From a virus: a stretch of 56,204 nucleotides of DNA. The position numbers and the translations under genes are program-made. Under the pieces are notes generated by a model. The model saw only the letters and a list, made by a program, of their open reading frames with translations. It made no database searches and had not been told where the DNA came from. The DNA lies in the IMG/VR virus record IMGVR_UViG_3300017417_000001, positions 1-56,204 of that record; one strand, given 5' to 3'. Below, in pieces: positions 4,374-52,434 of the stretch; the stretch's first letter is position 1, and every line of letters starts with the position of its first letter.

Positions 4374-6545
4374 ATGACCAAGCCACGCAGGCCCGCGAAG
4401 GGCGCCGGCGCGCGCGCCGACATGCAGGGCACTCGCTCGCTCGTGATGAACGGCGAGCTGATGCTCTACGGCGTCGTCGACAGCTACATCGATGCTTACG
4501 ACCCGGTCGGCGCCGTCGTGCGCTCGCTCGACGTCATGGGCTCGATCATCGAGCTCGCCGACCAGCCGCGGCTGAGCGTGCGCATCAACTCCCCGGGCGG
4601 CAACGTCATGGAGGGGCTGTCGATCTTCAACGCCCTGCGCAACGCGGGCAAGCCGATCGACATCCACATCGACGCCATGGCCGCCTCGATCGCCTCGGTG
4701 ATCGCGATGGCCGGCGACACGATCACGATCGCCGACACCGGCACGATCATGATCCACAACCCCTGGGACGTGGCGGTCGGCGATGCCGACGACATGCGCC
4801 AGCGGGCCGACGAGATCGACCGTCTGAAGGCGATCGTCGTCGACATCTACGCCAAGCGCACCGGGCTCGACCCGGCCGAGATCGACGCGCTGATGACCGC
4901 CGAGACCTTCATGTCCGCAGACGACGCGGTCGAGCGCGGCTTCGCAGATTCGGTCGAGCAGGGCTTGGCCATCGCCGCGTGCGCGCGGCTGACCCGAGAG
5001 GATCTGGGGCGTCTCAATGCTCCGGTGTCGGCCCGCGCGGCGCGCGGCTCGACCGTCACGGCTGCCGCGCCCGCGGTTCAGCCCCAACCTGCGGCCCCCG
5101 CCGCGCCCCCTGAGGAGAAGCCCGCGATGGCTGAAAACACCCCCGCCGGCGGCTCCGCTGCTCCGGCCGTTCCCGCGCACACCCCGGCTCCCGCCCCGGC
5201 GCCGGCCGTCGATCAGGGCGCGTTGCGCCGTGAGGCGACCGAGGCCGAGCGCGGCCGCGTCACCGGCATCCTGGCCGCGGCGCGCTCCGCGAAGTTCGAC
5301 CCGACCGACGCCTTCGTGACCGGGCTCATCCAGAACAGCATCGACCTGCAGGCGGCCCGCACCGCGATCCTCGACCGCTGGTCCGAGACCCAGAACGCCC
5401 GGCAGGACAACCCGCCCGGTGGTGAGCGTCCGTCCGGCATCGAAGTCCAGGCAGACGCGGTTGACCGCTGGGCCGAGGGCGCCGAGCGAGGCCTGATGAT
5501 CCGCACCGGCCTCGCCCGGGCCGAGGACAAGGATCGCGGCAACGAGTTCGTCGGCCTCACCCTGGCCGAGCTCGCCCGCTCCTCGCTGACCGTCCGCAAC
5601 ATGAAGTCCGGCGGCGAGAACCGCATGGCCATGGTCGGCCGGGCCTTCACCGTCCGCAACAGCGGTCCGGGCTTCCACTCGACCTCGGACTTCCCGAGCA
5701 TCCTCCAGAACGTCGCCTACCGCGCCGTGCTGAAGGGCTACCAGGAGGTCGACGAGACCTTCCCGCTCTGGACCGGCAAGGGCACGGCCTCGGATTTCCG
5801 CCCGATCTCCCGCGTCGACATGGGCTTGTTCCCGTCGCTCGGGAAGGTCGAGGAGGGCGCCGAGTACACCTACGCCACCATGGGCGACACCGGCACCGTG
5901 GTGCAGGTCGCGACCTACGGGCGCCTGTTCGCCATCACCCGCCAGGCCATCATCAACGACGACCTGCAGTTCTTCCAGCGGGTGCCGGAGCGGATGGGCC
6001 GCGCCGCCAAGCGCACGATCGGCAACCTCGTCTACGCGACGCTGAACGTGAACCCGGTCATGCAGGACGGCGTCGCCCTGTTCAACGCGGCGCACGGCAA
6101 CCTCGCCACCAACTCGGCGCCCCCGAGCGTCGTTACCCTCGCGGCCGCCATGGCGGCGATGCAGGTACAGACCGACACCAGTGGCATCGGCACCGGCGGC
6201 GGCGTCATGCCGAAGTTCGTGCTCACCCCGCCGGCCCTGTGGATGCCGACCAAGGTCGCGATCACCTCGGCGAACTACCCGGGCGACCCCGCCTCGGTGG
6301 CCAACCCGATCCGGGACATGTTCACCCCGATCGCCGACAGCCGCCTGACCGGCTCGGCTTGGTACATGGCCGCGGATCCGAACCAGCAGGACACGATCGA
6401 GGTCACGTACCTCGACGGCGTCGAGGAGCCCTTCCTCGACCAGAAGGATGGCTGGACCGTCGACGGGACCGAGATGAAGGTCCGGATCGATGCGGGTGTG
6501 AAGGCCCTCCACTGGCGCGGTCTCTACCGCAACATCGGCGCCTGA
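4374..6545 (+). CDS. Fusion of prohead protease (ClpP/S14-like), Ala/Pro-rich scaffold linker and HK97-fold major capsid protein
   Basis: The N-terminal part carries Clp-protease motifs (INSPGGNVMEGLSIFNAL, AASIASVIAMAGD, IMIHNPW). The middle is a PAAPAAPPEE linker. The C-terminal about 350 aa looks like a major capsid protein (ATYGRLFAITRQAIINDDL, LFNAAHGNL). Confidence 0.85.
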   Translation: MTKPRRPAKGAGARADMQGTRSLVMNGELMLYGVVDSYIDAYDPVGAVVRSLDVMGSIIELADQPRLSVRINSPGGNVMEGLSIFNALRNAGKPIDIHIDAMAASIASVIAMAGDTITIADTGTIMIHNPWDVAVGDADDMRQRADEIDRLKAIVVDIYAKRTGLDPAEIDALMTAETFMSADDAVERGFADSVEQGLAIAACARLTREDLGRLNAPVSARAARGSTVTAAAPAVQPQPAAPAAPPEEKPAMAENTPAGGSAAPAVPAHTPAPAPAPAVDQGALRREATEAERGRVTGILAAARSAKFDPTDAFVTGLIQNSIDLQAARTAILDRWSETQNARQDNPPGGERPSGIEVQADAVDRWAEGAERGLMIRTGLARAEDKDRGNEFVGLTLAELARSSLTVRNMKSGGENRMAMVGRAFTVRNSGPGFHSTSDFPSILQNVAYRAVLKGYQEVDETFPLWTGKGTASDFRPISRVDMGLFPSLGKVEEGAEYTYATMGDTGTVVQVATYGRLFAITRQAIINDDLQFFQRVPERMGRAAKRTIGNLVYATLNVNPVMQDGVALFNAAHGNLATNSAPPSVVTLAAAMAAMQVQTDTSGIGTGGGVMPKFVLTPPALWMPTKVAITSANYPGDPASVANPIRDMFTPIADSRLTGSAWYMAADPNQQDTIEVTYLDGVEEPFLDQKDGWTVDGTEMKVRIDAGVKALHWRGLYRNIGA

Positions 6546-33977: not shown

Positions 33978-35183
33978 TCAGCGCGTAGTGCGGCGGGCGA
34001 TTTCCAGAACGTTTGTCCGCGTTTGTTCACGCTCGTTTCTGTCGTTCCTGTCTGGTTTCAGTCGGTCTTGCCGGGACCGCCCGCCGGCCTTGGCCGCAGC
34101 CTCGCGCTGGTAGTCCGGGTGATGGTGCCAGTAGTGCCGCTCGATCGTCTCGACCGTGGTGGCATAGAAGCCGGCCGCGTCCTCCTTCGTCATGCCGTTG
34201 TGCATGCCCCAGGTGATCGCGGTGTGCTTCAGGATATGGGGCGTCACGTCGCTGCCGAGGCCCGCATCTCCGACGGCTCGCCGGAACGCCTTGTCGACGT
34301 CCATGACCGGTGCGCCGTTCCACTCGACAACGTGATTCCGGCATAGGCCCTGACGGCGCCAGCGGCGCAGGTGAGCCAGCAGGCGATCGGGAAGACGGAC
34401 CGGCAGCTTGCGCTTGTTCGTCTCGCGCTCGCCGGCGGGTCGCCGGTAGAAGACGCCGGTGTCGAGGTTGATCCAGCCCCTCCCCTCGGTCGGCTCGAAC
34501 GAGGCCGCGCAGATAGCGCCGGCCCGGGTGCCGGTATAAAGCGCGACCAAGATGAAGCGCGCGACGTGGCGGCGCGATCGGCGGCCCGTGGCGTGCCCCT
34601 TCTGCACCTCGCGGTATCGGTAGGCGGCGTGAATCAGTCGGGCGGCCTCAGCGCGGGTCAGCCAGCGCTCGCGGGCGACGCCCTTCTCCGGCAACACGAC
34701 GCGCACGATCTCGCGGTGCAGACCCTCGCGCAGGTGGTGCTCGATCGCGGATCGGAGATCTTCGAGCTGTCGCCGGGTCCCACCCTTGGCGACGTAGGCA
34801 CGGCAGGATTCGCCTGTGACCTGGGCCAGCGTCTTCGATCCCCAGAACCGCTGCAGCGCCGCGGCACGCTGCGCGACCTCCTTCGGCCTCGCCTGCCGGG
34901 CGGCGCAGTCGGTCAGGTAGATGTTGATGACGTCGGCGACCGAGATGGCAGCGAGTGGACGGTGGCCCTCGCGCGGCGGCTCATGCTTCTCGGCGAGGTA
35001 GCGGGCGAGGGCTTGCTCGGCTTCCGGAGGAGCTCGTCGATCGTCCTCGACAAGGACGCCTGTGCTGCGCTTGGTGCGACCGTCTCGGACGACCCAGACG
35101 GATCGCTCGATGAGTTCTCCTGTGTTCGGATCGCGCCGCTCGGCCTGAGCATAGAGACGGGCGCCCTTCGAAGGCCGCGACAT
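33978..35183 (-). CDS. int: Tyrosine recombinase / phage integrase
   Basis: 401 aa. Box II reads TPHILKHTAITW and the putative nucleophile Tyr lies in ETIERHYWH. The gene sits next to the tRNA-derived attP. Confidence 0.92.
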   Translation of the reverse strand: MSRPSKGARLYAQAERRDPNTGELIERSVWVVRDGRTKRSTGVLVEDDRRAPPEAEQALARYLAEKHEPPREGHRPLAAISVADVINIYLTDCAARQARPKEVAQRAAALQRFWGSKTLAQVTGESCRAYVAKGGTRRQLEDLRSAIEHHLREGLHREIVRVVLPEKGVARERWLTRAEAARLIHAAYRYREVQKGHATGRRSRRHVARFILVALYTGTRAGAICAASFEPTEGRGWINLDTGVFYRRPAGERETNKRKLPVRLPDRLLAHLRRWRRQGLCRNHVVEWNGAPVMDVDKAFRRAVGDAGLGSDVTPHILKHTAITWGMHNGMTKEDAAGFYATTVETIERHYWHHHPDYQREAAAKAGGRSRQDRLKPDRNDRNEREQTRTNVLEIARRTTR

Positions 35184-36742: not shown

Positions 36743-37671
36743 GCGGCTTCTCCGGACATGCAGGCGCAGCGCGTGACCTCGGCTGCTTCCTCTGCCGTCA
36801 GGACGCGGTCGCGCAGTTGGGTCAGGGTGAGCGGGCGCTTAATGGTTTTGGTGTCACCGGGTTGTTTGCGCCGATCTGTCATCATCGACACGTCGCCTAA
36901 TACGGCACGCAACTCCTGCTCCCGGCGCTCGGCATAGGCATAGCGCTCAGGAAAGGTCCCCAGCATCAGCTTCCAGTGGACTTGGCCGCCCTTGCAGCAG
37001 TGGCCGCCGCAGTTCGAATGCGAGAAGGCCCAGACGCTGAGCCGCTGTTGCCAAAGCCCGGCGCCGTCGACGATTGGCCGGATCAGCCACGGCATCACTG
37101 GGTGGTCGATCAGTGGCGCTTCGAACCGCCAGCCAGCGTCGGCCATCTGCGCGCGGAGGCCGCGAGTACTCAGGCGTTCCGAGCCCTCGAACCGCGCCCG
37201 CTCAGTGTCGTCAATCCCAACGATAACGATCGTCTCGGCCGGATCGCAGTTCTCGCGCAACCACCGGTCGCCGAGGTTTCGCTTCAGGATCTTGCTGCAA
37301 GGGTCGGCACGGCTGTTTCCTAGAAACCGCTCATGCTCGTAGACATCGAACGGATCGCGCCCATCAGCGATCCAGTGGAAGTCCGGCATCAGATCGCGCA
37401 CACGAGCGGCCAGCGTCAGGACATAAGCCTTGTAGAGCGGGCGATCTTCCCAAGCTGGGAAGTCGGCGATCTTAGGTAGAAAGCCCGGCGGCAGCGTGAT
37501 GCCGAAGAGGTGAGCCGCCCCAGCGATCAGGAAGCGGTAGGTATCCTGGTCCTCGATCAGCGTGTCAGTGAACAGGACCTCAAACCGCTCGGGCGCGTGC
37601 CGATCGATGTAGGTGCGGGCCGCGAGCCATGAGCCCTCACCGCCGGATAGCTTTGCGATGATACGGGTCAC
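36739..37671 (-). CDS. PAPS-reductase-family PP-loop ATP pyrophosphatase-like protein
   Basis: N-terminal PP-loop variant AKLSGGEGSWLAA and a C-terminal Cys cluster SHSNCGGHCCKGG. 310 aa. Confidence 0.7.
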   Translation of the reverse strand: MTRIIAKLSGGEGSWLAARTYIDRHAPERFEVLFTDTLIEDQDTYRFLIAGAAHLFGITLPPGFLPKIADFPAWEDRPLYKAYVLTLAARVRDLMPDFHWIADGRDPFDVYEHERFLGNSRADPCSKILKRNLGDRWLRENCDPAETIVIVGIDDTERARFEGSERLSTRGLRAQMADAGWRFEAPLIDHPVMPWLIRPIVDGAGLWQQRLSVWAFSHSNCGGHCCKGGQVHWKLMLGTFPERYAYAERREQELRAVLGDVSMMTDRRKQPGDTKTIKRPLTLTQLRDRVLTAEEAAEVTRCACMSGEAA

Positions 37672-39191
37672 GACCGCACCTCCCCGGCCTGATCCTGGCT
37701 CGCATGGATGGTGGCTAGAGCGTCGGACAGCTTCACGGCCGACATGTGCCAGGGCTCGACTGCCGCTTCCGCTTCGGCATCCTCGCGGGTGTAGTGGCCG
37801 GCCTCATTTGGGCTCACCGTGTAGCCGCATCGGTTCGGTCGGTAGAAGTAGCCGCCCTTCCGGATCAGATACGGATCCTCCAGCAGCGCCTTTGCCTCCC
37901 CTGCAGGATCGGGTTGGCTTCGCGGAGTGCATCCACGATGACCAGCGCCGGCAGCTTCCAGAGCATCGTCGAGATCCGCCGGCGCTGGCAGACGCCGCCA
38001 AGCAATCGGCTGATCCTCAATCTGGCCGTCCGCATATTCGCCATCGCTTTCGCCGGCCCACCACCAGGATCCGTCATGGGCCTCAGAATTGAAATAAGCC
38101 TCGCCGACGATGGCTATCTTGTCTGGGCCGCTTAAGATGACCGTCAGCAGAACTGGGGTGCGGTCCTTCGGTGCCGCCTCCATGTCAAAGCACCAATTGT
38201 CGACGGCGCCCGTCCCCTCATCGGCCGATCCCGTTCCTGCTGGGAGAGATGCGGGGACGGAACTCTGGCGAACTAGCCTGCCATACTCACCGTCGAGAGT
38301 CTCAAACTGCTGGCGATGGTAATGCGCGATCTCTTGCGCATCCCTAAGTTGGTCGCGCAGAGCTTCAATCTCGGTCTCGCGCGCGGAAGCTTCGACGAGC
38401 TTATTTTCACGGAAATCATTGACCAAACGGCAGACGAACTCGGCAACCCGCCTTGTACAAGAGGCTATGCTACCGGCGTCATCGCCATCGTCATGCGTGA
38501 CAATGCCGTCGCATGCGATTTCGCTCGGGCCGCCATCTTCGTCATGCGCCTCATGTTCGTCTGGATACCAAGTTCCTTTCGGGGCAGCCGCACTAAGCCG
38601 TTCCAGTTCCCGCAGATCCACCCGCTCTGCGGTGAGTGGAGGGGACGAGGATCCTTGCTGGGCGGCGAGAGGCCCGAGCCCACGCAGGTAGCCTTCTAGT
38701 TCGTCGTTAAACACCTCGGCTGCGCCCACAGAAATCAGCCGTTCCTCGCGGGTTCCGCCTTTGCTGAGCACGATCCGAACGTAGGAGCCGGATGGGTCAG
38801 GCTCGTTCTTCCCGTTGACCGGGCCGGAAACACTGATGTCGCGGAGCGACGATGATCCTTGCTGGGCGGGAGGGGGCGGAGCGGCGGCGATCATCGCTTC
38901 GTAGACCGAGCCGAGACCGCCCCATCCGCCCGTCTCAGCAGCTTCATAGGCATCGTGGGCGGCGTAGGCTGCGTCGAGCATCGCCTTGGTAGCCTGCTTA
39001 GGCAGCAGCACGAAGCCATCCGCTCCCCCGGCGGCACCTGCGCGGGCCATGTCCCGGGCCTCGGCGAAGGCGTTGGCCTGCCCCTCCCAAAAACACACCC
39101 TATTAATGGGCTTGGCAGTTCTAGCCTGCTTCACAGCCTCCTCGCGCTTGGCCTCGAAGCGTGCGGCCAGGTCCGTGGTGGGGTTCGTCAT
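37668..39191 (-). CDS. Composite early protein (Ead/Ea22-like segment, DUF551-like segment, further modules)
   Basis: 507 aa. It contains LRELERLSAAAPKGTWY (Ea22-like), EAAPKDRTPVLL..WWWAGE (DUF551-like) and a duplicated AQQGSSS linker. Confidence 0.65.
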   Translation of the reverse strand: MTNPTTDLAARFEAKREEAVKQARTAKPINRVCFWEGQANAFAEARDMARAGAAGGADGFVLLPKQATKAMLDAAYAAHDAYEAAETGGWGGLGSVYEAMIAAAPPPPAQQGSSSLRDISVSGPVNGKNEPDPSGSYVRIVLSKGGTREERLISVGAAEVFNDELEGYLRGLGPLAAQQGSSSPPLTAERVDLRELERLSAAAPKGTWYPDEHEAHDEDGGPSEIACDGIVTHDDGDDAGSIASCTRRVAEFVCRLVNDFRENKLVEASARETEIEALRDQLRDAQEIAHYHRQQFETLDGEYGRLVRQSSVPASLPAGTGSADEGTGAVDNWCFDMEAAPKDRTPVLLTVILSGPDKIAIVGEAYFNSEAHDGSWWWAGESDGEYADGQIEDQPIAWRRLPAPADLDDALEAAGAGHRGCTPRSQPDPAGEAKALLEDPYLIRKGGYFYRPNRCGYTVSPNEAGHYTREDAEAEAAVEPWHMSAVKLSDALATIHASQDQAGEVRS

Positions 39192-39529
39192 CGGGCGGCT
39201 CCTGGCTTATCGGCGAAGAGGTCGGTGGTCCGGCCGCAGCGGGCGATACGGGCGCGCGCAGCGGCATCGCGGAAGCCGGTGCATGCAGGCTGGCCGTCCG
39301 CGCCGTACTGCCACTCGACCGGGTAGCCAGGCTCGCCGATCCCGTGCGCCATGGAGGCGACGAAGATCGTGCAGCCTTGGCCCGCGAAGCCATGGCGGCG
39401 GGAGCACGCCGAGCACCAAGCCTCAGCGAAGATCTCGCCTTCCGTACCGTTACTTGGGCGGTAGGGATGGCCGGCGCTGGACTTCAGACGCTCGGCCATG
39501 TCGTCCGGATAGATGCGCCGTTCCATCAT
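39188..39529 (-). CDS. Hypothetical Cys-containing protein (PSNGTEG..F...WC..C motif)
   Basis: 113-aa ORF with 4-nt overlaps on both sides. Confidence 0.6.
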   Translation of the reverse strand: MMERRIYPDDMAERLKSSAGHPYRPSNGTEGEIFAEAWCSACSRRHGFAGQGCTIFVASMAHGIGEPGYPVEWQYGADGQPACTGFRDAAARARIARCGRTTDLFADKPGAAR

Positions 39530-39750
39530 CGGGCGGCTCCCGTGGTGAGGGCTAGGATCTCCGCTTCAGCGATCTCGACCGCCTCTTCCCGGTCAGCGTC
39601 GCAGTGAAAGAGCAGGCCCGGCGTTGCGTTTTCCCAGCGCTGAACGATCCGCTCAGCGGCGGCCTTGATCCGATCACGGGCGCTGAGAGCCTTCTCCCCC
39701 TCGCCAGCCCCGGACGCTGCGTGTGTCGTGGTGGTGCTGGACTCGGCCAT
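39526..39750 (-). CDS. Small hypothetical protein
   Basis: ATG at 39750, 74 aa, just downstream of the methyltransferase stop. Confidence 0.5.
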   Translation of the reverse strand: MAESSTTTTHAASGAGEGEKALSARDRIKAAAERIVQRWENATPGLLFHCDADREEAVEIAEAEILALTTGAAR

Positions 39751-39754
39751 GGGG

Positions 39755-41917
39755 CTACTCTGCTGCAAAGAGGGGCATCGGGACGGCCTTGGCCGCCGGG
39801 CGCACGCGGGCATCGGCCTCGCGGTAGTTCGCGGCGACGAGCGCCTGCGCCATGTCGGGGCACACGGAATTCCCGCACATGCGCCCCTGCTGCTCGAGGG
39901 TGAGCGGGACGATCGAGCCGTCCTCGAGCATGCCGCGATCGATCACGTAGTCCGACCGGAATCCCTGCGCGTTGAAGCGCTCGCGCGGCGTCAGCATCCG
40001 CATGCCGATGTCGACGATCACGTGGGGCTCGCCGTCGACCATCACCGTGACGACGCCGAATCCGTCCTTGGCCCGGACGGTGTGCAGCGGCTCGGTGGCC
40101 GACTGGGCGAAGGCCCCGGTCCCGTACCACTTCGTCAGGAAGGCATAGACGGCGCCCGCGTGGTTGCCGCCGGCGGTGAACGTCGGCGCCGGGCTATCCG
40201 CGGCCGCGCTCCGGCCGTCGGCCCCGTGCATGTTGATGAGGTGCGCCGCGACGACGTTCTGGTGCCCGCCGGCGGCCGTGATGGTCGAGATCGGCTCCCG
40301 GGCATCGGCCCCGGCCTTAACCGCCCCGCCGCGCTCGGTGTTGTGCTGCGCCAGGAATGCGGCGACGACCTTCGTCTTGCCCTGGCCGTGCGGCATGACG
40401 GTTGGCGCTGGCTCATCCACGGCAGCCCCAACCGACATGCCGAAGTCGCGGGCGAGATGCGCCGCCACCACGCTGACCTTGTCGCGACCGGACAGGGTGT
40501 GCGTCGGTTGCTCCGCCTGCTGCCCTACCGATTTGCCGTAGTGCTTCTGCAGGTGGACCGCTGCGAGGCTCCCCTCGTTGCCGGTCGGCACAATGACGGG
40601 CGCCGGCTCCTCGACGGACCGGGCGCGCGGATCCTGGCCGGGCCGCTCGCCGTAGCGTGGTACGAGGCAGGCGCCGACCAGACTGAGGCCGGCCCCCTGT
40701 GCCGTGATGGTGTGCGCGGGCTCGTCGACCGCAGTGTGCGGTTTGTCGGCGCTTCGCATCGTCATCAGGTGCGGGCACACGACCCCGAGCGGCGCCGCGC
40801 CGCCGCCGTGCGTCTCGCTGGCATGCGAGGTCACGGTGGCAAGCGGGCGATCGATCTCGTGGCCGGTGGCGCCGCGGTTGAACTTGGTCACGAAGGGCGC
40901 GACGATCGCGTTCTGGTCCTTCGGGCTGGCCGTGATCGTGTGCAGCGGGCCGCCCGCATCCCGATTGCCGCCGCCCTGCTGACCATAGGTGACGAAGGGC
41001 TGCACCAGTGCGTCGCCGCTGTAGTGCGTCGCCGTCGGCATCGGCTCGTCGAGGCCGCGATCGCGCCGGCCACGGCTGTCGCCATGGTTCACCCGCACCA
41101 GGAACGGCTTCGCGGCCTTCACCACGTAGCGCATCGTTCCCTTGGCGATCCGAGCCATCGTCGCCTCGGCGAGCGGGCGGTTCGCGCGGATACCGTGCTT
41201 CGCCTTGATCTCGGCTGAGGTCTCGAAGATCGACGGGCACGGCAGCGACCAGTCGATGATCTCGGCTGCCGTTCGCCAGGGCTTGAGCCGGCCGGACCGC
41301 ACGCCCTCGCTGTCCGGCGCGCCATGCGTCGGCTCCGGCCAGACGATCAGCTTCCCGTCCCGGCGCGCGACCAGGAACAGCCGCTTCCGGATTGTAGGCG
41401 CGCCATAGTCGCAAGCCCGCAGCTCGCGCCATTCGACGACGTAGCCCATGGCCTCCAGGGCGGCGACGAACTGCTTGAACGTGGCGCCACGCTGGACCGG
41501 GCACGGCCGGCCGTCATCGAGCAGCGGGCCCCAATCGGCGAACTCCTCGACATTCTCCAGGAACACGACCCGCGGCCGCTGGCGCTTCGGCAGGCTCTTG
41601 ATCCAGCGCACGCCGACCCAGGCCAGGCCGCGGATCGCCTTCTCACGCGGCTTACCGCCCTTCGCCTTGCTGAAGTGCTTGCAGTCCGGGCTCATCCATA
41701 GAAGCCCGACATCACGGCCGGCACACAGACCGACCGCATCGACGTTCCAGACGTCCTCCTCGATGTGGTGCGTGCCCGGATGGTTGATCCGGTGCATCGC
41801 GAGCGCCAGGCCGTCGTGGTTCAGCGCATAGTCCGGGTCCCGGCCGAGCGCGGCGCGGATGCCCTCGGACGCGCCGCCGCCGCCCGCGAAGCTGTCGATG
41901 ATCAGAGGCGCGCTCAT
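39755..41917 (-). CDS. DNA (cytosine-5) methyltransferase with expanded variable region
   Basis: Motif I DSFAGGGGAS, motif IV SPDCKHFS, motif VI FLENV, motif VIII APTIRKRLFLVA, motif IX RMLTPRERFNAQGF and motif X GNSVCP. About 350 aa lie between motifs VIII and IX. Confidence 0.92.
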   Translation of the reverse strand: MSAPLIIDSFAGGGGASEGIRAALGRDPDYALNHDGLALAMHRINHPGTHHIEEDVWNVDAVGLCAGRDVGLLWMSPDCKHFSKAKGGKPREKAIRGLAWVGVRWIKSLPKRQRPRVVFLENVEEFADWGPLLDDGRPCPVQRGATFKQFVAALEAMGYVVEWRELRACDYGAPTIRKRLFLVARRDGKLIVWPEPTHGAPDSEGVRSGRLKPWRTAAEIIDWSLPCPSIFETSAEIKAKHGIRANRPLAEATMARIAKGTMRYVVKAAKPFLVRVNHGDSRGRRDRGLDEPMPTATHYSGDALVQPFVTYGQQGGGNRDAGGPLHTITASPKDQNAIVAPFVTKFNRGATGHEIDRPLATVTSHASETHGGGAAPLGVVCPHLMTMRSADKPHTAVDEPAHTITAQGAGLSLVGACLVPRYGERPGQDPRARSVEEPAPVIVPTGNEGSLAAVHLQKHYGKSVGQQAEQPTHTLSGRDKVSVVAAHLARDFGMSVGAAVDEPAPTVMPHGQGKTKVVAAFLAQHNTERGGAVKAGADAREPISTITAAGGHQNVVAAHLINMHGADGRSAAADSPAPTFTAGGNHAGAVYAFLTKWYGTGAFAQSATEPLHTVRAKDGFGVVTVMVDGEPHVIVDIGMRMLTPRERFNAQGFRSDYVIDRGMLEDGSIVPLTLEQQGRMCGNSVCPDMAQALVAANYREADARVRPAAKAVPMPLFAAE
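40043..41104 (-). repeat. Ten tandem coding repeats of 33-41 aa inside the C5 methyltransferase (TRD-like units)
   Basis: Every unit has a hydrophobic start (FL/HL/FV), a Gly-containing segment, then (D/E)EP-x-x-T-(I/V)-T-like, then hydrophobic VVAA/IVAP. Example cores are DEPMPTAT, GGPLHTITA, DRPLATVTS, DEPAHTITA, EEPAPVIVP, EQPTHTLSG, DEPAPTVMP, REPISTITA, DSPAPTFTA and TEPLHTVRA. Confidence 0.85.
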
Positions 41918-49884: not shown

Positions 49885-50400
49885 ATGGCGCTGCCGAAGA
49901 TCCTCGCCCTCGACCTGGCAACGAAGTGCGGCTGGGCCGTCGGCTCGCCCGACGGTGAGCCGCGCTACGGCACGAAGGTCCTGCCTTCGACCGGCGAGGA
50001 CATCGGCCGCTTCGCCGCCGCCTACAACGAATGGCTCCTCGACATGATCACGCTGGAGAGCCCGGCGCTGATCGTGTTCGAGGCGCCGATCCTCGCCGGC
50101 CAGACCACCCTCACCACGGCGCGCAAGCTCGGTGGTCTGGCCTGGCACACCGAGTTCGTGTGCAACCTGCGCCAGGTGCGCTGCGCCGAGCACCACCTGC
50201 AGAGCGTCAAGAAGTTCTTCGCTGGCAGCGGCCGCGCCGACAAGGCCGCGATGATCGAGGCCGCCCGCCGCCATGGCTGGGCACCGAAGGACGACAACGC
50301 GGCCGACGCCCTCGGGCTCTGGTGCTGCGCTGTGCACGAGAAGGCGCCGCAGCATGGCAAGCGGTTCGCCCTCGGTGCCCTCGGGAGCCGGGCGGCATGA
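49885..50400 (+). CDS. RuvC-like Holliday junction resolvase
   Basis: ILALDLATKCGWAV carries the first catalytic Asp. FEAP and DDNAADALGLW are typical of phage RuvC-like resolvases. Confidence 0.78.
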   Translation: MALPKILALDLATKCGWAVGSPDGEPRYGTKVLPSTGEDIGRFAAAYNEWLLDMITLESPALIVFEAPILAGQTTLTTARKLGGLAWHTEFVCNLRQVRCAEHHLQSVKKFFAGSGRADKAAMIEAARRHGWAPKDDNAADALGLWCCAVHEKAPQHGKRFALGALGSRAA

Positions 50401-50975
50401 CCTGGCCCTTCGGCACGCTGCAGCCCTTCGGCTTCGACATGCTCATGGTCGATCCGCCGTGGGCCTTCGCGCTCCGCTCCGAGAAGGGCGAGGCGAAGAG
50501 CCCGCAGGCGCAGTACGCCTGCATGCCGCTCGACGCGATCAAGGCCTTGCCGGTCGCGCAGCTGGCACGCGGCGACGCCTTCCTCTGGCTCTGGGCCACC
50601 AACCCGATGCTGCCCCAGGCGCTCGAGGTGATGGCTGCCTGGGGCTTTACGTTCTCGACCTCCGGCGCGTGGGTGAAGACGACTTCCGGCGGCAAGCTCG
50701 CGTTCGGCACCGGCTACGTGCTGCGCAGCGCCTCCGAGCCCTTCCTGATCGGCAAGTTCGGCCGGCCGCGCGCCGGGCGCGCCGTGCGCAGCGTGATCAT
50801 GGCGCCGGTGCGCGAGCACAGCCGCAAGCCCGACGAGGCCTACGCCGCGGCCGAGGCCCTGCTGCCGGGCGCGCTGCGCCGCGCCGATCTGTTCTCGCGC
50901 GAGGCTCGGGCTGGCTGGACCGCCTGGGGGCATGAGGCGGGCAAGTTCGACGCCCCCGCCATGGCGGCGGAGTAG
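50397..50975 (+). CDS. MT-A70-family N6-adenine DNA methyltransferase
   Basis: ATG at 50397 (ATGA overlap). Catalytic DPPW in MLMVDPPWAF, plus LWLWATN and EHSRKPDE. 192 aa. Confidence 0.85.
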   Translation: MTWPFGTLQPFGFDMLMVDPPWAFALRSEKGEAKSPQAQYACMPLDAIKALPVAQLARGDAFLWLWATNPMLPQALEVMAAWGFTFSTSGAWVKTTSGGKLAFGTGYVLRSASEPFLIGKFGRPRAGRAVRSVIMAPVREHSRKPDEAYAAAEALLPGALRRADLFSREARAGWTAWGHEAGKFDAPAMAAE

Positions 50976-50979
50976 CACC

Positions 50980-52434
50980 ATGGCCCGCGATCCAGCCGCC
51001 GTCCTCCCGTTCCGCCAGCCCGAGGGCCAGGCCGTCCCGCCGCATAACATCGAGGCCGAGCGCGCGCTGCTCGGCATCCTGATGATGAAGCCGGACCAGA
51101 TCCCGGCCGTCACGCAGATCCTGCGCCCGGAGCACTTCTACTTCGCGGACCACCAGGAGGTGTTCGGGATCATCGAGGCGCTCGCCGCCGCCGGCAGCAC
51201 GTCGACTCCGATCACCGTGAAGGGCTACCTGCCGCGGCCGATGATCGGCGACCGCCCGGCGATCGCTTACCTGACCGGCTGCACCGACGAGTACTTCACC
51301 TCCGATGCGCCCGGGTACGCCCAGGTGGTGCGCGATCTCGCATCACGCCGCTCGCTTCTTGAGATCGCCGACGAGCTCGCGGAGAAGGCCCGGACCTCGA
51401 TTCCCGGCACGCTGGCGCAGGGCATCATCGACGAGACCGAGCAGGCGCTGCTCGACGTCCGCGCCGTGGTCCCGCAGGCGCACCTCGCCGGCCAGACCAC
51501 CGAGCAGGGCACGGCCTGGATGTTGGAGCGCATCTCCGGGCTGCGGTCCGGCTTGCTGCAGGTGACCTCGATCAGCACAGGCATCCCCGATCTGGACCGA
51601 GCCACCAACGGCGGCTTCCAGCGGGGGCAGCTCTACCTGCTGTCGGCTCGCCCCGGCATGGGCAAGACGGTCGCCCTGACCTCGCTCTCGCGCCTCGCGG
51701 CCCGGGACGCCGGCGTGCTCGTCTACCAGTGCGAGGTGACCCGCGATCAGCAGTGGGCCCGCTACCTCGCCGACCTCTCCTACGTCCACAACCGGCCGCT
51801 GACGTTCGGCAAGATCATGGCCGGCGTCGACCTCGACGACGAGGACGTCTGGCGCCTGGAGGATGCCGCCAAGCGCCTCGACCAGCTGCACCTCAAGCTC
51901 GAATGTGAGCCTTCGGTTAGCGTCGCGCAGATCACCTTCGGGGTGAAGCAGGAGAAGCGCCGGCTCGCGAAGCTGGGCGTGCGCCTCGGCGTCGTGTTCA
52001 TCGACTACCTGAAATACATCAAGGCGTCGGACCGCTACCAGGGCAACCGCGTCCTGGAGATCGGCGAGATCTCCGGCTCGCTGAAGCAGCTCGCGAAGGC
52101 CGAGGACGTCTGCATCGTCCTGCTGACCCAGCTGAACCGTCAGGTCGAGGCCGAGGGCCGCGCTGATCGCCGCCCGGGCCTCGCCGACCTCCGGGACTCG
52201 GGTGAGCTGGAGCAGGACGCCGATACGGTGATCTTTCTCTACCGCGAGGCCTACTACCTCGAGAAGAAGTTCAAGGCGACCGGCGACGCCGAGATCGGCG
52301 CCCGCCTGTTCGAGCGCCAGAACAGCCTCGAGATGATCCTCGGCAAGAACCGCTCCGGCCCGGCGACGACCCTCAATCTCTGGGTCGACGTGGCCTCCTC
52401 CAAGATCGCACCAACCACACAGGGGCTTGCCTGA
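50980..52434 (+). CDS. dnaB: Replicative DNA helicase DnaB
   Basis: N-terminus PPHNIEAERALLGILM, Walker A ARPGMGKT, plus LLTQLNR and DLRDSGELEQDAD. 484 aa. Confidence 0.92.
   Translation: MARDPAAVLPFRQPEGQAVPPHNIEAERALLGILMMKPDQIPAVTQILRPEHFYFADHQEVFGIIEALAAAGSTSTPITVKGYLPRPMIGDRPAIAYLTGCTDEYFTSDAPGYAQVVRDLASRRSLLEIADELAEKARTSIPGTLAQGIIDETEQALLDVRAVVPQAHLAGQTTEQGTAWMLERISGLRSGLLQVTSISTGIPDLDRATNGGFQRGQLYLLSARPGMGKTVALTSLSRLAARDAGVLVYQCEVTRDQQWARYLADLSYVHNRPLTFGKIMAGVDLDDEDVWRLEDAAKRLDQLHLKLECEPSVSVAQITFGVKQEKRRLAKLGVRLGVVFIDYLKYIKASDRYQGNRVLEIGEISGSLKQLAKAEDVCIVLLTQLNRQVEAEGRADRRPGLADLRDSGELEQDADTVIFLYREAYYLEKKFKATGDAEIGARLFERQNSLEMILGKNRSGPATTLNLWVDVASSKIAPTTQGLA

Follow-up and report, generated by a model that had tools for sequence, protein, structure and literature searches.

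The stretch of DNA analysed here (the window) comprises the 56,204 nucleotides (nt) of IMG/VR virus record IMGVR_UViG_3300017417_000001 and carries, on the minus strand at positions 39755..41917, an open reading frame (ORF) of 720 amino acids (aa) encoding an orphan C5 DNA methyltransferase, in which a chain of ten units resembling target-recognition domains (TRDs) is inserted into the catalytic core. The protein is a 100% match to entry P0001 of our protein collection (other P numbers given below denote homologues in that collection). Its identity as a C5 methyltransferase is supported by PF00145, whose score of 80.9 bits exceeds the cut-off of 22 and whose strongest match covers residues 6-189, and by TIGR00675, the model for the dcm superfamily, although here the score of 74.5 bits lies under the equivalog-style cut-off of 100.65; a shortfall that is to be expected, because the unit array splits the domain. 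The enzyme possesses all of the catalytic motifs of its class, in the normal order I, IV, VI, VIII, IX and X, as the initial annotation of this DNA had stated and as our reading of the sequence confirms.

The N-terminal catalytic half (residues 1-198; 41324..41917, on the minus strand, as are all parts of the gene listed below) contains motifs I, IV, VI and VIII, encompasses the Pfam match at residues 6-189, and is modelled by AlphaFold2 (AF2) with predicted local distance difference test (pLDDT) scores of 80-97. Motif I (DSFAGGGGAS, residues 8-17, with FAGGGG at 10-15; 41867..41896), which would bind S-adenosylmethionine, is invariant across the 107 homologues that we aligned, and it is to this alignment that statements of invariance refer throughout. 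Motif IV (SPDCKHFS, residues 76-83; 41669..41692) provides the catalytic Cys79 within an invariant S76, P77, D78 and C79, such that the motif reads P-D-C rather than the commoner P-C-Q. In motif VI (FLENVEEF, residues 119-126, with ENV at 121-123; 41540..41563) E121, N122, E124, E125 and F126 are invariant and V123 nearly so, whilst in motif VIII (GAPTIRKRLFLVA, residues 172-184, with TIRKR at 175-179; 41366..41404) T175, I176, R177 and R179 are invariant.

Motif VIII is joined to the array by a conserved, partly helical connector (residues 199-270; 41108..41323), with invariant columns that include W214, D222 and the segment PCPSIF (226-231), and with AF2-modelled helices spanning 234-241 and 251-266. 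On the far side of the array, a bridging β-hairpin (AF2 strands 623-627 and 630-634) leads into motif IX; together these occupy residues 626-653 (MVDGEPHVIVDIGMRMLTPRERFNAQGF; 39959..40042), with motif IX itself, as read from the sequence, spanning residues 639-653 (MRMLTPRERFNAQGF, with RMLTPRE at 640-646) within the same interval. D636, M639, R640, M641, L642 and E646 of this segment are invariant, with I637 and G638 nearly so. Motif X (CGNSVCP, residues 681-687, with GNSV at 682-685; 39857..39877) completes the core, with G682, N683, S684, V685 and P687 invariant. A Foldseek search of the PDB matched the catalytic core to DNMT1, M.HaeIII (1dct), M.HhaI and 3g7u (E-values of 1e-9 to 1e-12), and did so for the catalytic core alone, with no match reaching into the array; matches to PDB sequences (3g7u, DNMT1 and HhaI) were likewise confined to the N-terminal half.

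The array extends over residues 271-625 (40043..41107) and is made up of ten units, in the order T6 T7 T8 T9 T4 T3 T3 T2 T5 T1, as delineated by autocorrelation, a unit hidden Markov model (HMM) and the clustering of units into types. Unit 1 (residues 271-306, PFLVRVNHGDSRGRRDRGLDEPMPTATHYSGDALVQ; 41000..41107) scores 31.8 bits with the unit HMM and is of type T6, a type present in 95 of 124 proteins. It is followed by unit 2 (residues 307-340, T7, PFVTYGQQGGGNRDAGGPLHTITASPKDQNAIVA; 40898..40999), whose type also occurs in the Pyei1 and RR1-A enzymes considered below, by unit 3 (residues 341-381, T8, PFVTKFNRGATGHEIDRPLATVTSHASETHGGGAAPLGVVC; 40775..40897), which has a long second loop, and by unit 4 (residues 382-417, T9, PHLMTMRSADKPHTAVDEPAHTITAQGAGLSLVGAC; 40667..40774), which occupies a variable cassette position. 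Unit 5 (residues 418-454, LVPRYGERPGQDPRARSVEEPAPVIVPTGNEGSLAAV; 40556..40666) belongs to T4, the most conserved of the unit types (mean similarity 0.81); unit 6 (residues 455-486, HLQKHYGKSVGQQAEQPTHTLSGRDKVSVVAA; 40460..40555) is a variant of T3, and unit 7 (residues 487-520, HLARDFGMSVGAAVDEPAPTVMPHGQGKTKVVAA; 40358..40459) is T3 proper. Unit 8 (residues 521-558, T2, FLAQHNTERGGAVKAGADAREPISTITAAGGHQNVVAA; 40244..40357) includes a nearly invariant FLAQHN, unit 9 (residues 559-592, T5, HLINMHGADGRSAAADSPAPTFTAGGNHAGAVYA; 40142..40243) stands at a position where other proteins may have T13 instead, and the terminal unit 10 (residues 593-625, FLTKWYGTGAFAQSATEPLHTVRAKDGFGVVTV; 40043..40141) is of type T1, found once in each of 119 of the 124 proteins. 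All ten were recognised by the unit HMM, with type clustering providing the assignments.

Several lines of evidence establish that these units are real. A BLOSUM-based autocorrelation of the array region peaks at a lag of 34 residues (z = 7.4 relative to 200 shuffled versions), a unit HMM trained on the ten window units recovers every one of them in the window methylase, and, when iterated, the same model finds 1,061 units in 124 homologues as compared with 3 in shuffled copies. The ten consecutive units placed by the initial annotation between motifs VIII and IX are thereby upheld, and the span given for them (40043-41104) corresponds exactly to residues 272-625; of the proposed unit length of 33-41 aa, the upper bound stands, whereas the measured range begins at 32 aa. 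At the level of DNA, neither Tandem Repeats Finder nor a direct-repeat search found a tandem repeat in the methylase gene, with only short, imperfect two-copy matches to be seen; the units are therefore old and diverged, and we reject recent duplication or slippage as the origin of the array.

Each unit is built on a common scaffold, consisting of a hydrophobic start strand, a central (D/E)-x-P-x-x-T-(I/V)-T and a hydrophobic end strand. This agrees in outline with the (D/E)EP-x-x-T-(I/V)-T core and hydrophobic ends described in the initial annotation, except that, within the core, only P and T approach invariance (in unit 5 the T is a V); in a column-wise analysis of variability, P19, T22 and T24 are common to all unit types. 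The two loops to either side behave very differently, in that columns 4-14 and 25-31 carry 2.5-3.7 bits of variability between types but just 0.6-1.0 bits within a type. Such a combination, of variation between types and conservation within them, is the pattern expected for a recognition module. The units occupy the same place as the TRDs of C5 methyltransferases, between motifs VIII and IX. Such TRDs have a conserved TL dipeptide with a loop on each side (Loop 1 and Loop 2), and it is these loops that recognise the target, in its 5′ and 3′ parts (PMC2790894); the layout of the units, with a type-specific loop, a conserved T-(I/V) and a second type-specific loop, mirrors this arrangement.

The units also behave as autonomous, individually conserved and exchangeable cassettes. 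We typed 1,072 units from 124 proteins by pairwise global alignment, which yielded around 31 types; of these, 16 are recurrent, being found in 13 or more proteins each. Units of the same type in different proteins have a mean normalised similarity of 0.67, as against 0.145 for units within one protein. The 124 proteins display 92 distinct architectures; T1 is the last unit in all 30 of the architectures listed, and the mid-array region is variable, with T9, T10, T11, T12, T14 and T15 coming and going. Unit order is thus largely fixed, whilst content is variable. Comparison with the closest relatives captures this exchange directly: P0002 has a core 96% identical to that of the window methylase, with units 1-3 and 5-8 that are 91-100% identical, and a unit 4 of another type. 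At this position, T9 is replaced by T10, T14 and T11 in P0002, P0004 and P0006, respectively, between flanks that are 88-100% identical, and unit 6 is cleanly missing from P0004, P0006 and P0011. The synonymous divergence (dS) from P0002 is 1.5 for the swapped unit 4 as compared with 0.27 for the core, indicating that this unit was acquired from a distant source.

The retained units are, at the same time, under strong constraint. The ratio of non-synonymous to synonymous divergence (dN/dS) against P0002 is no greater than 0.08 for each of units 1, 3, 5, 6, 7 and 8; unit by unit, it is close to 0 for unit 1 (against P0002), 0.035 for unit 5 and 0.021 for unit 7. Measured against the collinear P0055, the array (0.236) and the core (0.226) give similar values, from which it follows that the units are under purifying selection equal to that on the core, and are neither decaying copies nor a loose linker.

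Arrays of this kind are the norm for the family. A tblastn search with the window methylase matched 499 phage records, with coverage of 80% or more of the protein in 154 of them; with the array region by itself, there were 101 matching phage records (coverage 19-90%), mostly of phages of Proteobacteria but also of Nostoc, Myxococcus, gut and Firmicute phages. A ten-unit profile run against 1.84 billion representative proteins (clustered at the 50% identity level) returned 1,770 clusters with E <= 0.001, and 736 with E <= 1e-10. The comparison of repeat number among homologues that the initial annotation had proposed is informative here, as the best 148 clusters have between 4 and 13 units each, with a mode of 8, and 27 of the 148 have at least 10; ten units therefore lie in the upper range but are unexceptional. 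Protein length among close homologues fits 348 + 39.7 aa per unit, and these enzymes can accordingly be described as an ordinary C5 core plus n units. The nearest relatives of the window methylase come from Methylobacterium and other Hyphomicrobiales (78-89% identity). As a separate observation, three homologues (P0076, P0082 and P0093) are 932-1,048 aa long, carry PF13403 (Hint-type) besides PF00145 and have arrays that start only at around residue 550-630, which suggests an intein-like or other insertion in, or an N-terminal fusion to, the methylase.

What such an enzyme might do can be gauged from relatives with experimental data. Two 5-methylcytosine (m5C) methylases from prophages of Paracoccus aminophilus, when expressed in E. 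coli, were described as having ‘relaxed substrate specificity’ (Dziewit 2014, PMC3925955), and gave partial protection against 16 of 28 endonucleases (PMC3925955 Table S6). The protected sites include AGCT, GGCC, CCWGG, CCSGG, CCGG, GCGC, ACGT, CTCGAG, CAGCTG, GCN7GC and RGGNCCY, amongst others, whilst CGCG, GATC, GGNNCC, CCWWGG, CTAG, CATG, CCGCTC, ACGCGT and CCATGG were fully cut (PMC3925955). The published cloning primers agree with the N- and C-termini of P0343 (JCM7686_0772) and P0342 (JCM7686_2655), and we thereby identified these two as the tested enzymes; the former is 44% identical to the window methylase over 594 aa (E = 4e-153). Both have 8 units, in the order T16 T5 T21 T19 T9 T30 T2 T1, of which T9, T5, T2 and T1 are held in common with the window methylase. 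Since no short motif unites the protected sites, and sites similar to them are cut, at least 7 non-nested specificities would be needed in these eight-unit enzymes; a deduction that is ours and not that of the original authors.

Other members of this group of relaxed prophage m5C methyltransferases are Pyei1_p05 of a Paracoccus phage, ARM81mr_p29, ARM81ld_p31 and the enzyme of Rhizobium phage RR1-A (PMC3925955, PMC5537653, PMC6536676), with the Aeromonas phage ARM81 enzymes having been called relaxed in specificity as well (Decewicz 2017, PMC5537653). We count 5 units in each of the ARM81 enzymes, at least 8 in Pyei1_p05 and at least 9 in that of RR1-A. These enzymes of Alpha- and Gammaproteobacteria are full-length homologues of the window methylase (39-46% identity to the phage enzymes), have core, connector and kind of unit array in common with it, and are likewise orphans located in the early or replication module of a prophage. 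The window methylase differs from them in having 10 units as opposed to 5-9, in its own set of types (T6, T7, T8, T4 and T3) and in being without a helical insert of around 45 aa between the last unit and motif IX, which is present in the Paracoccus and RR1-A enzymes. The insert (…PPFGPEHxARARxVAEFLRAHGxWxxxEFVT…) can be found in P0342, P0343, Pyei1_p05 (L001:2980-5001), RR1-A (L004:3055-5148) and P0117; the Methylobacterium relatives of the window methylase are also without it. On homology, unit array, shared types and orphan prophage context, the window methylase fits within this relaxed-specificity family.

The longer-established precedent comes from Bacillus phages, whose multispecific methylases (M.SPRI, M.Phi3TI, M.Rho11sI and M.H2I, together with M.phiBssHII) combine several TRDs in one polypeptide, are phage-borne orphans, and protect against several host restriction systems (PMC12707154, PMC8936443). 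They resemble the window methylase in having one core with tandem recognition domains between motifs VIII and IX (assuming, as we infer, that our units are true TRDs), and their TRD regions carry the same short core as the units, in the form of LSPTITT, VSHTLSA and EPAFTVNT. The core of unit 10 can be aligned with EPAFTVNTIDRHGV of SPR at a pairwise E of 0.005, motifs IX and X falling into the same register, and the segment directly upstream of motif IX that M.SPRI, M.Phi3TI, M.Rho11sI and M.H2I all have in common aligns with the core of the last unit. The Bacillus enzymes are, however, only 437-503 aa long, compared to 720 aa and ten units for the window methylase. Two to three specificities have reportedly been documented per enzyme, in papers from the Trautner laboratory. 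An N-terminal probe of the window methylase gave less than 60% identity outside Bacillus phages, and its lineage is therefore separate from, or very distant to, that of the Bacillus-phage enzymes. We do not claim homology of the units to SPR-class TRDs, but only the same working principle. The monospecific enzymes M.HhaI and M.HaeIII are similar to the window methylase in catalytic fold, and in a Loop 1/TL/Loop 2 arrangement that the unit layout mirrors (PMC2790894), but each has a single TRD.

Synthesising these observations, we consider that the window gene encodes an orphan, phage-borne C5 methyltransferase which is multispecific, with one ‘mini-TRD’ for each specificity, and which serves in anti-restriction; to this reading we would assign a probability of roughly 0.6. 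In the mechanism that we envisage, one catalytic core (motifs I-VIII plus IX-X) would be interrupted by a chain of ten recognition modules, each of around 35 residues and built as a boundary β-strand, the P-x-x-T-(I/V)-T core and a second boundary strand, with two type-specific loops. At a given DNA site, a single module would dock beside the catalytic cleft, such that its two loops could read the bases around the flipped cytosine, in the manner of Loop 1 and Loop 2 in M.HhaI and M.HaeIII, whilst the flexible chain would loop the undocked modules out of the way; the methylated set would then be the union of the sites read by the modules. We suggest that the methylase would be expressed from the early recombination/replication module of the prophage, and that its likely role is to pre-methylate phage DNA, allowing progeny to survive many of the Type II restriction systems of their hosts, with modules gained, lost and exchanged at the conserved boundary strands so as to retune the spectrum of protection. 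By analogy with the published homologues, that protection could be broad. Taking this a step further, we can tentatively picture the whole family as a natural combinatorial library of minimal TRDs of around 35 residues, in which each type would specify one short sequence through its two loops, with 4-13 per enzyme, and in which cassette exchange would be driven by an arms race with host restriction; a generalisation to which we would give slightly less than even odds.

A number of observations weigh against the reading of one module per specificity. The pLDDT within the array is just 20-45, with a 107-sequence and a 17-sequence collinear alignment alike, a level of confidence that supports neither the docking model nor any alternative fold of the array. 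A 35-position unit profile gave only chance matches to IGFBP4 among PDB sequences (E of around 0.6), and the last unit combined with motifs IX and X had no PDB match at E <= 1. Unit HMMs scored below 0 bits on M.SPRI, M.Phi3TI, M.Rho11sI and M.H2I, with no significant match, and on M.HhaI the best placement (around residues 222-263, including TL250) scored about 0 bits and was likewise not significant. T3 occurs twice in the window array, which amounts to redundancy if type equals specificity. One homologue, Phi2LM21_p23, was inactive in E. coli (PMC5537653). Of the initial proposal that the enzyme is multispecific in the manner of the SPR and phi3T methylases, what survives is thus the TRD position, the loop layout, the cassettes and the protection conferred by homologues, whereas homology to SPR-class TRDs was not established.

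Protection of the tested homologues was, moreover, only partial at each protected site, and one loosely specific TRD could give the same result. In that case T1 might be the sole reader, of a short or degenerate site, with the other nine units serving to raise affinity or processivity, either as a scaffold or as an arm that binds or scans DNA non-specifically; T1 is, after all, present in 119 of the 124 proteins, and is the sole unit to align with the motif-IX-adjacent segment of other C5 methyltransferases. We nevertheless regard this as unlikely, as a non-specific arm needs no set of around 16 types with their own conserved loops, and cassette replacement between near-identical enzymes would be unexpected; nor do AGCT, ACGT, CTCGAG, GCGC, GGCC and CCWGG have a short motif in common that one loose domain could read, whilst the related CGCG, CCATGG, GGNNCC and CCGCTC are fully cut. 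A rigid solenoid or β-sheet array that reads one site, which the initial annotation had offered as its alternative, can draw on the regular period, on the hydrophobic strand at each unit boundary and on the short boundary strands in the AF2 model (272-275, 302-305, 342-345, 377-380, 417-421 and 450-454). Neither of the two AF2 runs produced a confident solenoid, however, with low pLDDT in the array from both alignments; residues 190-640 had no match to a Pfam repeat family, and neither Pfam (over those residues) nor the PDB, by sequence or by fold, linked the repeats to a known non-TRD structural domain, the finding that had been named as potentially decisive against a TRD array. Units are also freely inserted, deleted and replaced between close relatives, and because the homologues protect many unrelated sites, the multispecific reading is to be favoured over a single-specificity solenoid, which we think very improbable.

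Less credible still is a composite reading akin to that of transcription activator-like effectors (TALEs), whereby side-by-side units would specify one long target, its length set by the number of repeats. Tandem units with type-specific loops do resemble modular DNA readers in form, but a composite target of such length would occur too seldom to protect 4-bp sites, many of which the homologues do protect; C5 methyltransferases read the bases beside the flipped cytosine through the TRD (PMC2790894), and it is the order of the units that is mostly fixed and their content that varies. A different kind of objection accepts the enzymology that we propose and questions its purpose, which might instead lie in phage replication, packaging, gene expression or the marking of DNA. 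The methylase gene does sit in a recombination/replication module, Decewicz et al. suggest a replication-stage role for homologues that are likewise placed (PMC5537653), and this phage has an MT-A70 methylase beside DnaB. Against this, regulatory methylases usually keep one motif, whereas module content here turns over fast, as would fit an arms race, and the Bacillus precedent is one of anti-restriction (PMC12707154); we judge a non-defensive purpose to be improbable, and continue to favour a multispecific enzyme that acts in anti-restriction.

Neither the broad protective methylation afforded by a few relatives nor the idea of tandem TRDs, which is decades old, is new. The division of the array into 4-13 units of around 35 aa, the approximately 16 recurrent types, the type-specific loops and the exchange of cassettes appear, provisionally, to be undescribed for this family in the open-access literature: the term ‘TRD’ is absent from PMC5537653, the open-access papers on the family speak of ‘relaxed specificity’ and do so without repeats or TRD arrays, a 2025 review names only Bacillus phages in connection with TRD arrays (PMC12707154), and literature searches on related subjects turned up no further description. 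The modular architecture would provide a structural explanation for this ‘relaxed specificity’, with far more modules per enzyme than in the classical multispecific methylases of Bacillus. If each module does read one site, then the spectrum of protection should be predictable from the list of modules, which is of consequence for the host range of phages and for phage therapy; the ability of one gene to counter many Type II systems would be explained as well, and enzyme engineers would have at their disposal a large natural set of minimal TRDs. If the family is indeed a combinatorial library, near-isogenic pairs such as P0001/P0002 (T9 versus T10) could serve to match modules to motifs, leading to a readable recognition code for C5 methyltransferases and to parts for methylases of chosen specificity. 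Such enzymes are probably under-recognised, because m5C specificities are poorly covered by PacBio methylomes.

Turning to its genomic setting, the window represents a temperate tailed-phage genome or prophage, with genes for a large terminase, a portal, a protease-capsid fusion, a tail sheath and a tape measure, along with an integrase (33978-35183, minus strand), and may be a complete or near-complete temperate phage genome. Just one contig, of 56,222 nt, carries precisely this protein, and the window takes up almost all of it. Its early module encodes an exonuclease VIII-like protein, an AAA_24 protein, a DnaB-type helicase and a replication initiator. The neighbours of the methylase gene are those for the exonuclease VIII-like protein, the AAA_24 protein, a winged-helix regulator and the integrase; no restriction-enzyme domain was detected when the genes around it were scanned with Pfam and PHROGs, and it is on this basis that we call the methylase an orphan. 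As listed, the next ORF downstream (39526-39813, minus strand) has 59 nt in common with the 3′ end of the methylase gene, an overlap for which either a true start lying further downstream or translational coupling with the methylase gene would account. Just downstream of the methylase operon lies an ORF of 507 aa (37668-39191, minus strand) with an internal repeated ‘AAQQGSSS’ segment; no Pfam or PHROGs match was found for this ORF.

The window encodes a second methyltransferase, of 314 aa (50031-50975, plus strand), which belongs to the MT-A70 family (PF05063, 100.5 bits; phrog_359) and whose gene is directly upstream of, and overlaps, that of the DnaB-like helicase (50932-52434). The phage thus carries an m5C methylase together with what is probably an N6-methyladenine (m6A) methylase, a pairing of m5C and m6A enzymes that is known from prophages of Paracoccus and Sinorhizobium. 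No tRNA gene was found in the window, and its G+C content falls to 0.60-0.62 near 12-14 kb, 32-34 kb and 46-48 kb. Finally, the ORF at 4374-6545 (plus strand, 723 aa) matches both a head maturation protease (phrog_133) and a ‘major head and protease protein’ (phrog_4523), and can be read from these matches as the protease-capsid fusion referred to above, as in some HK97-like phages.

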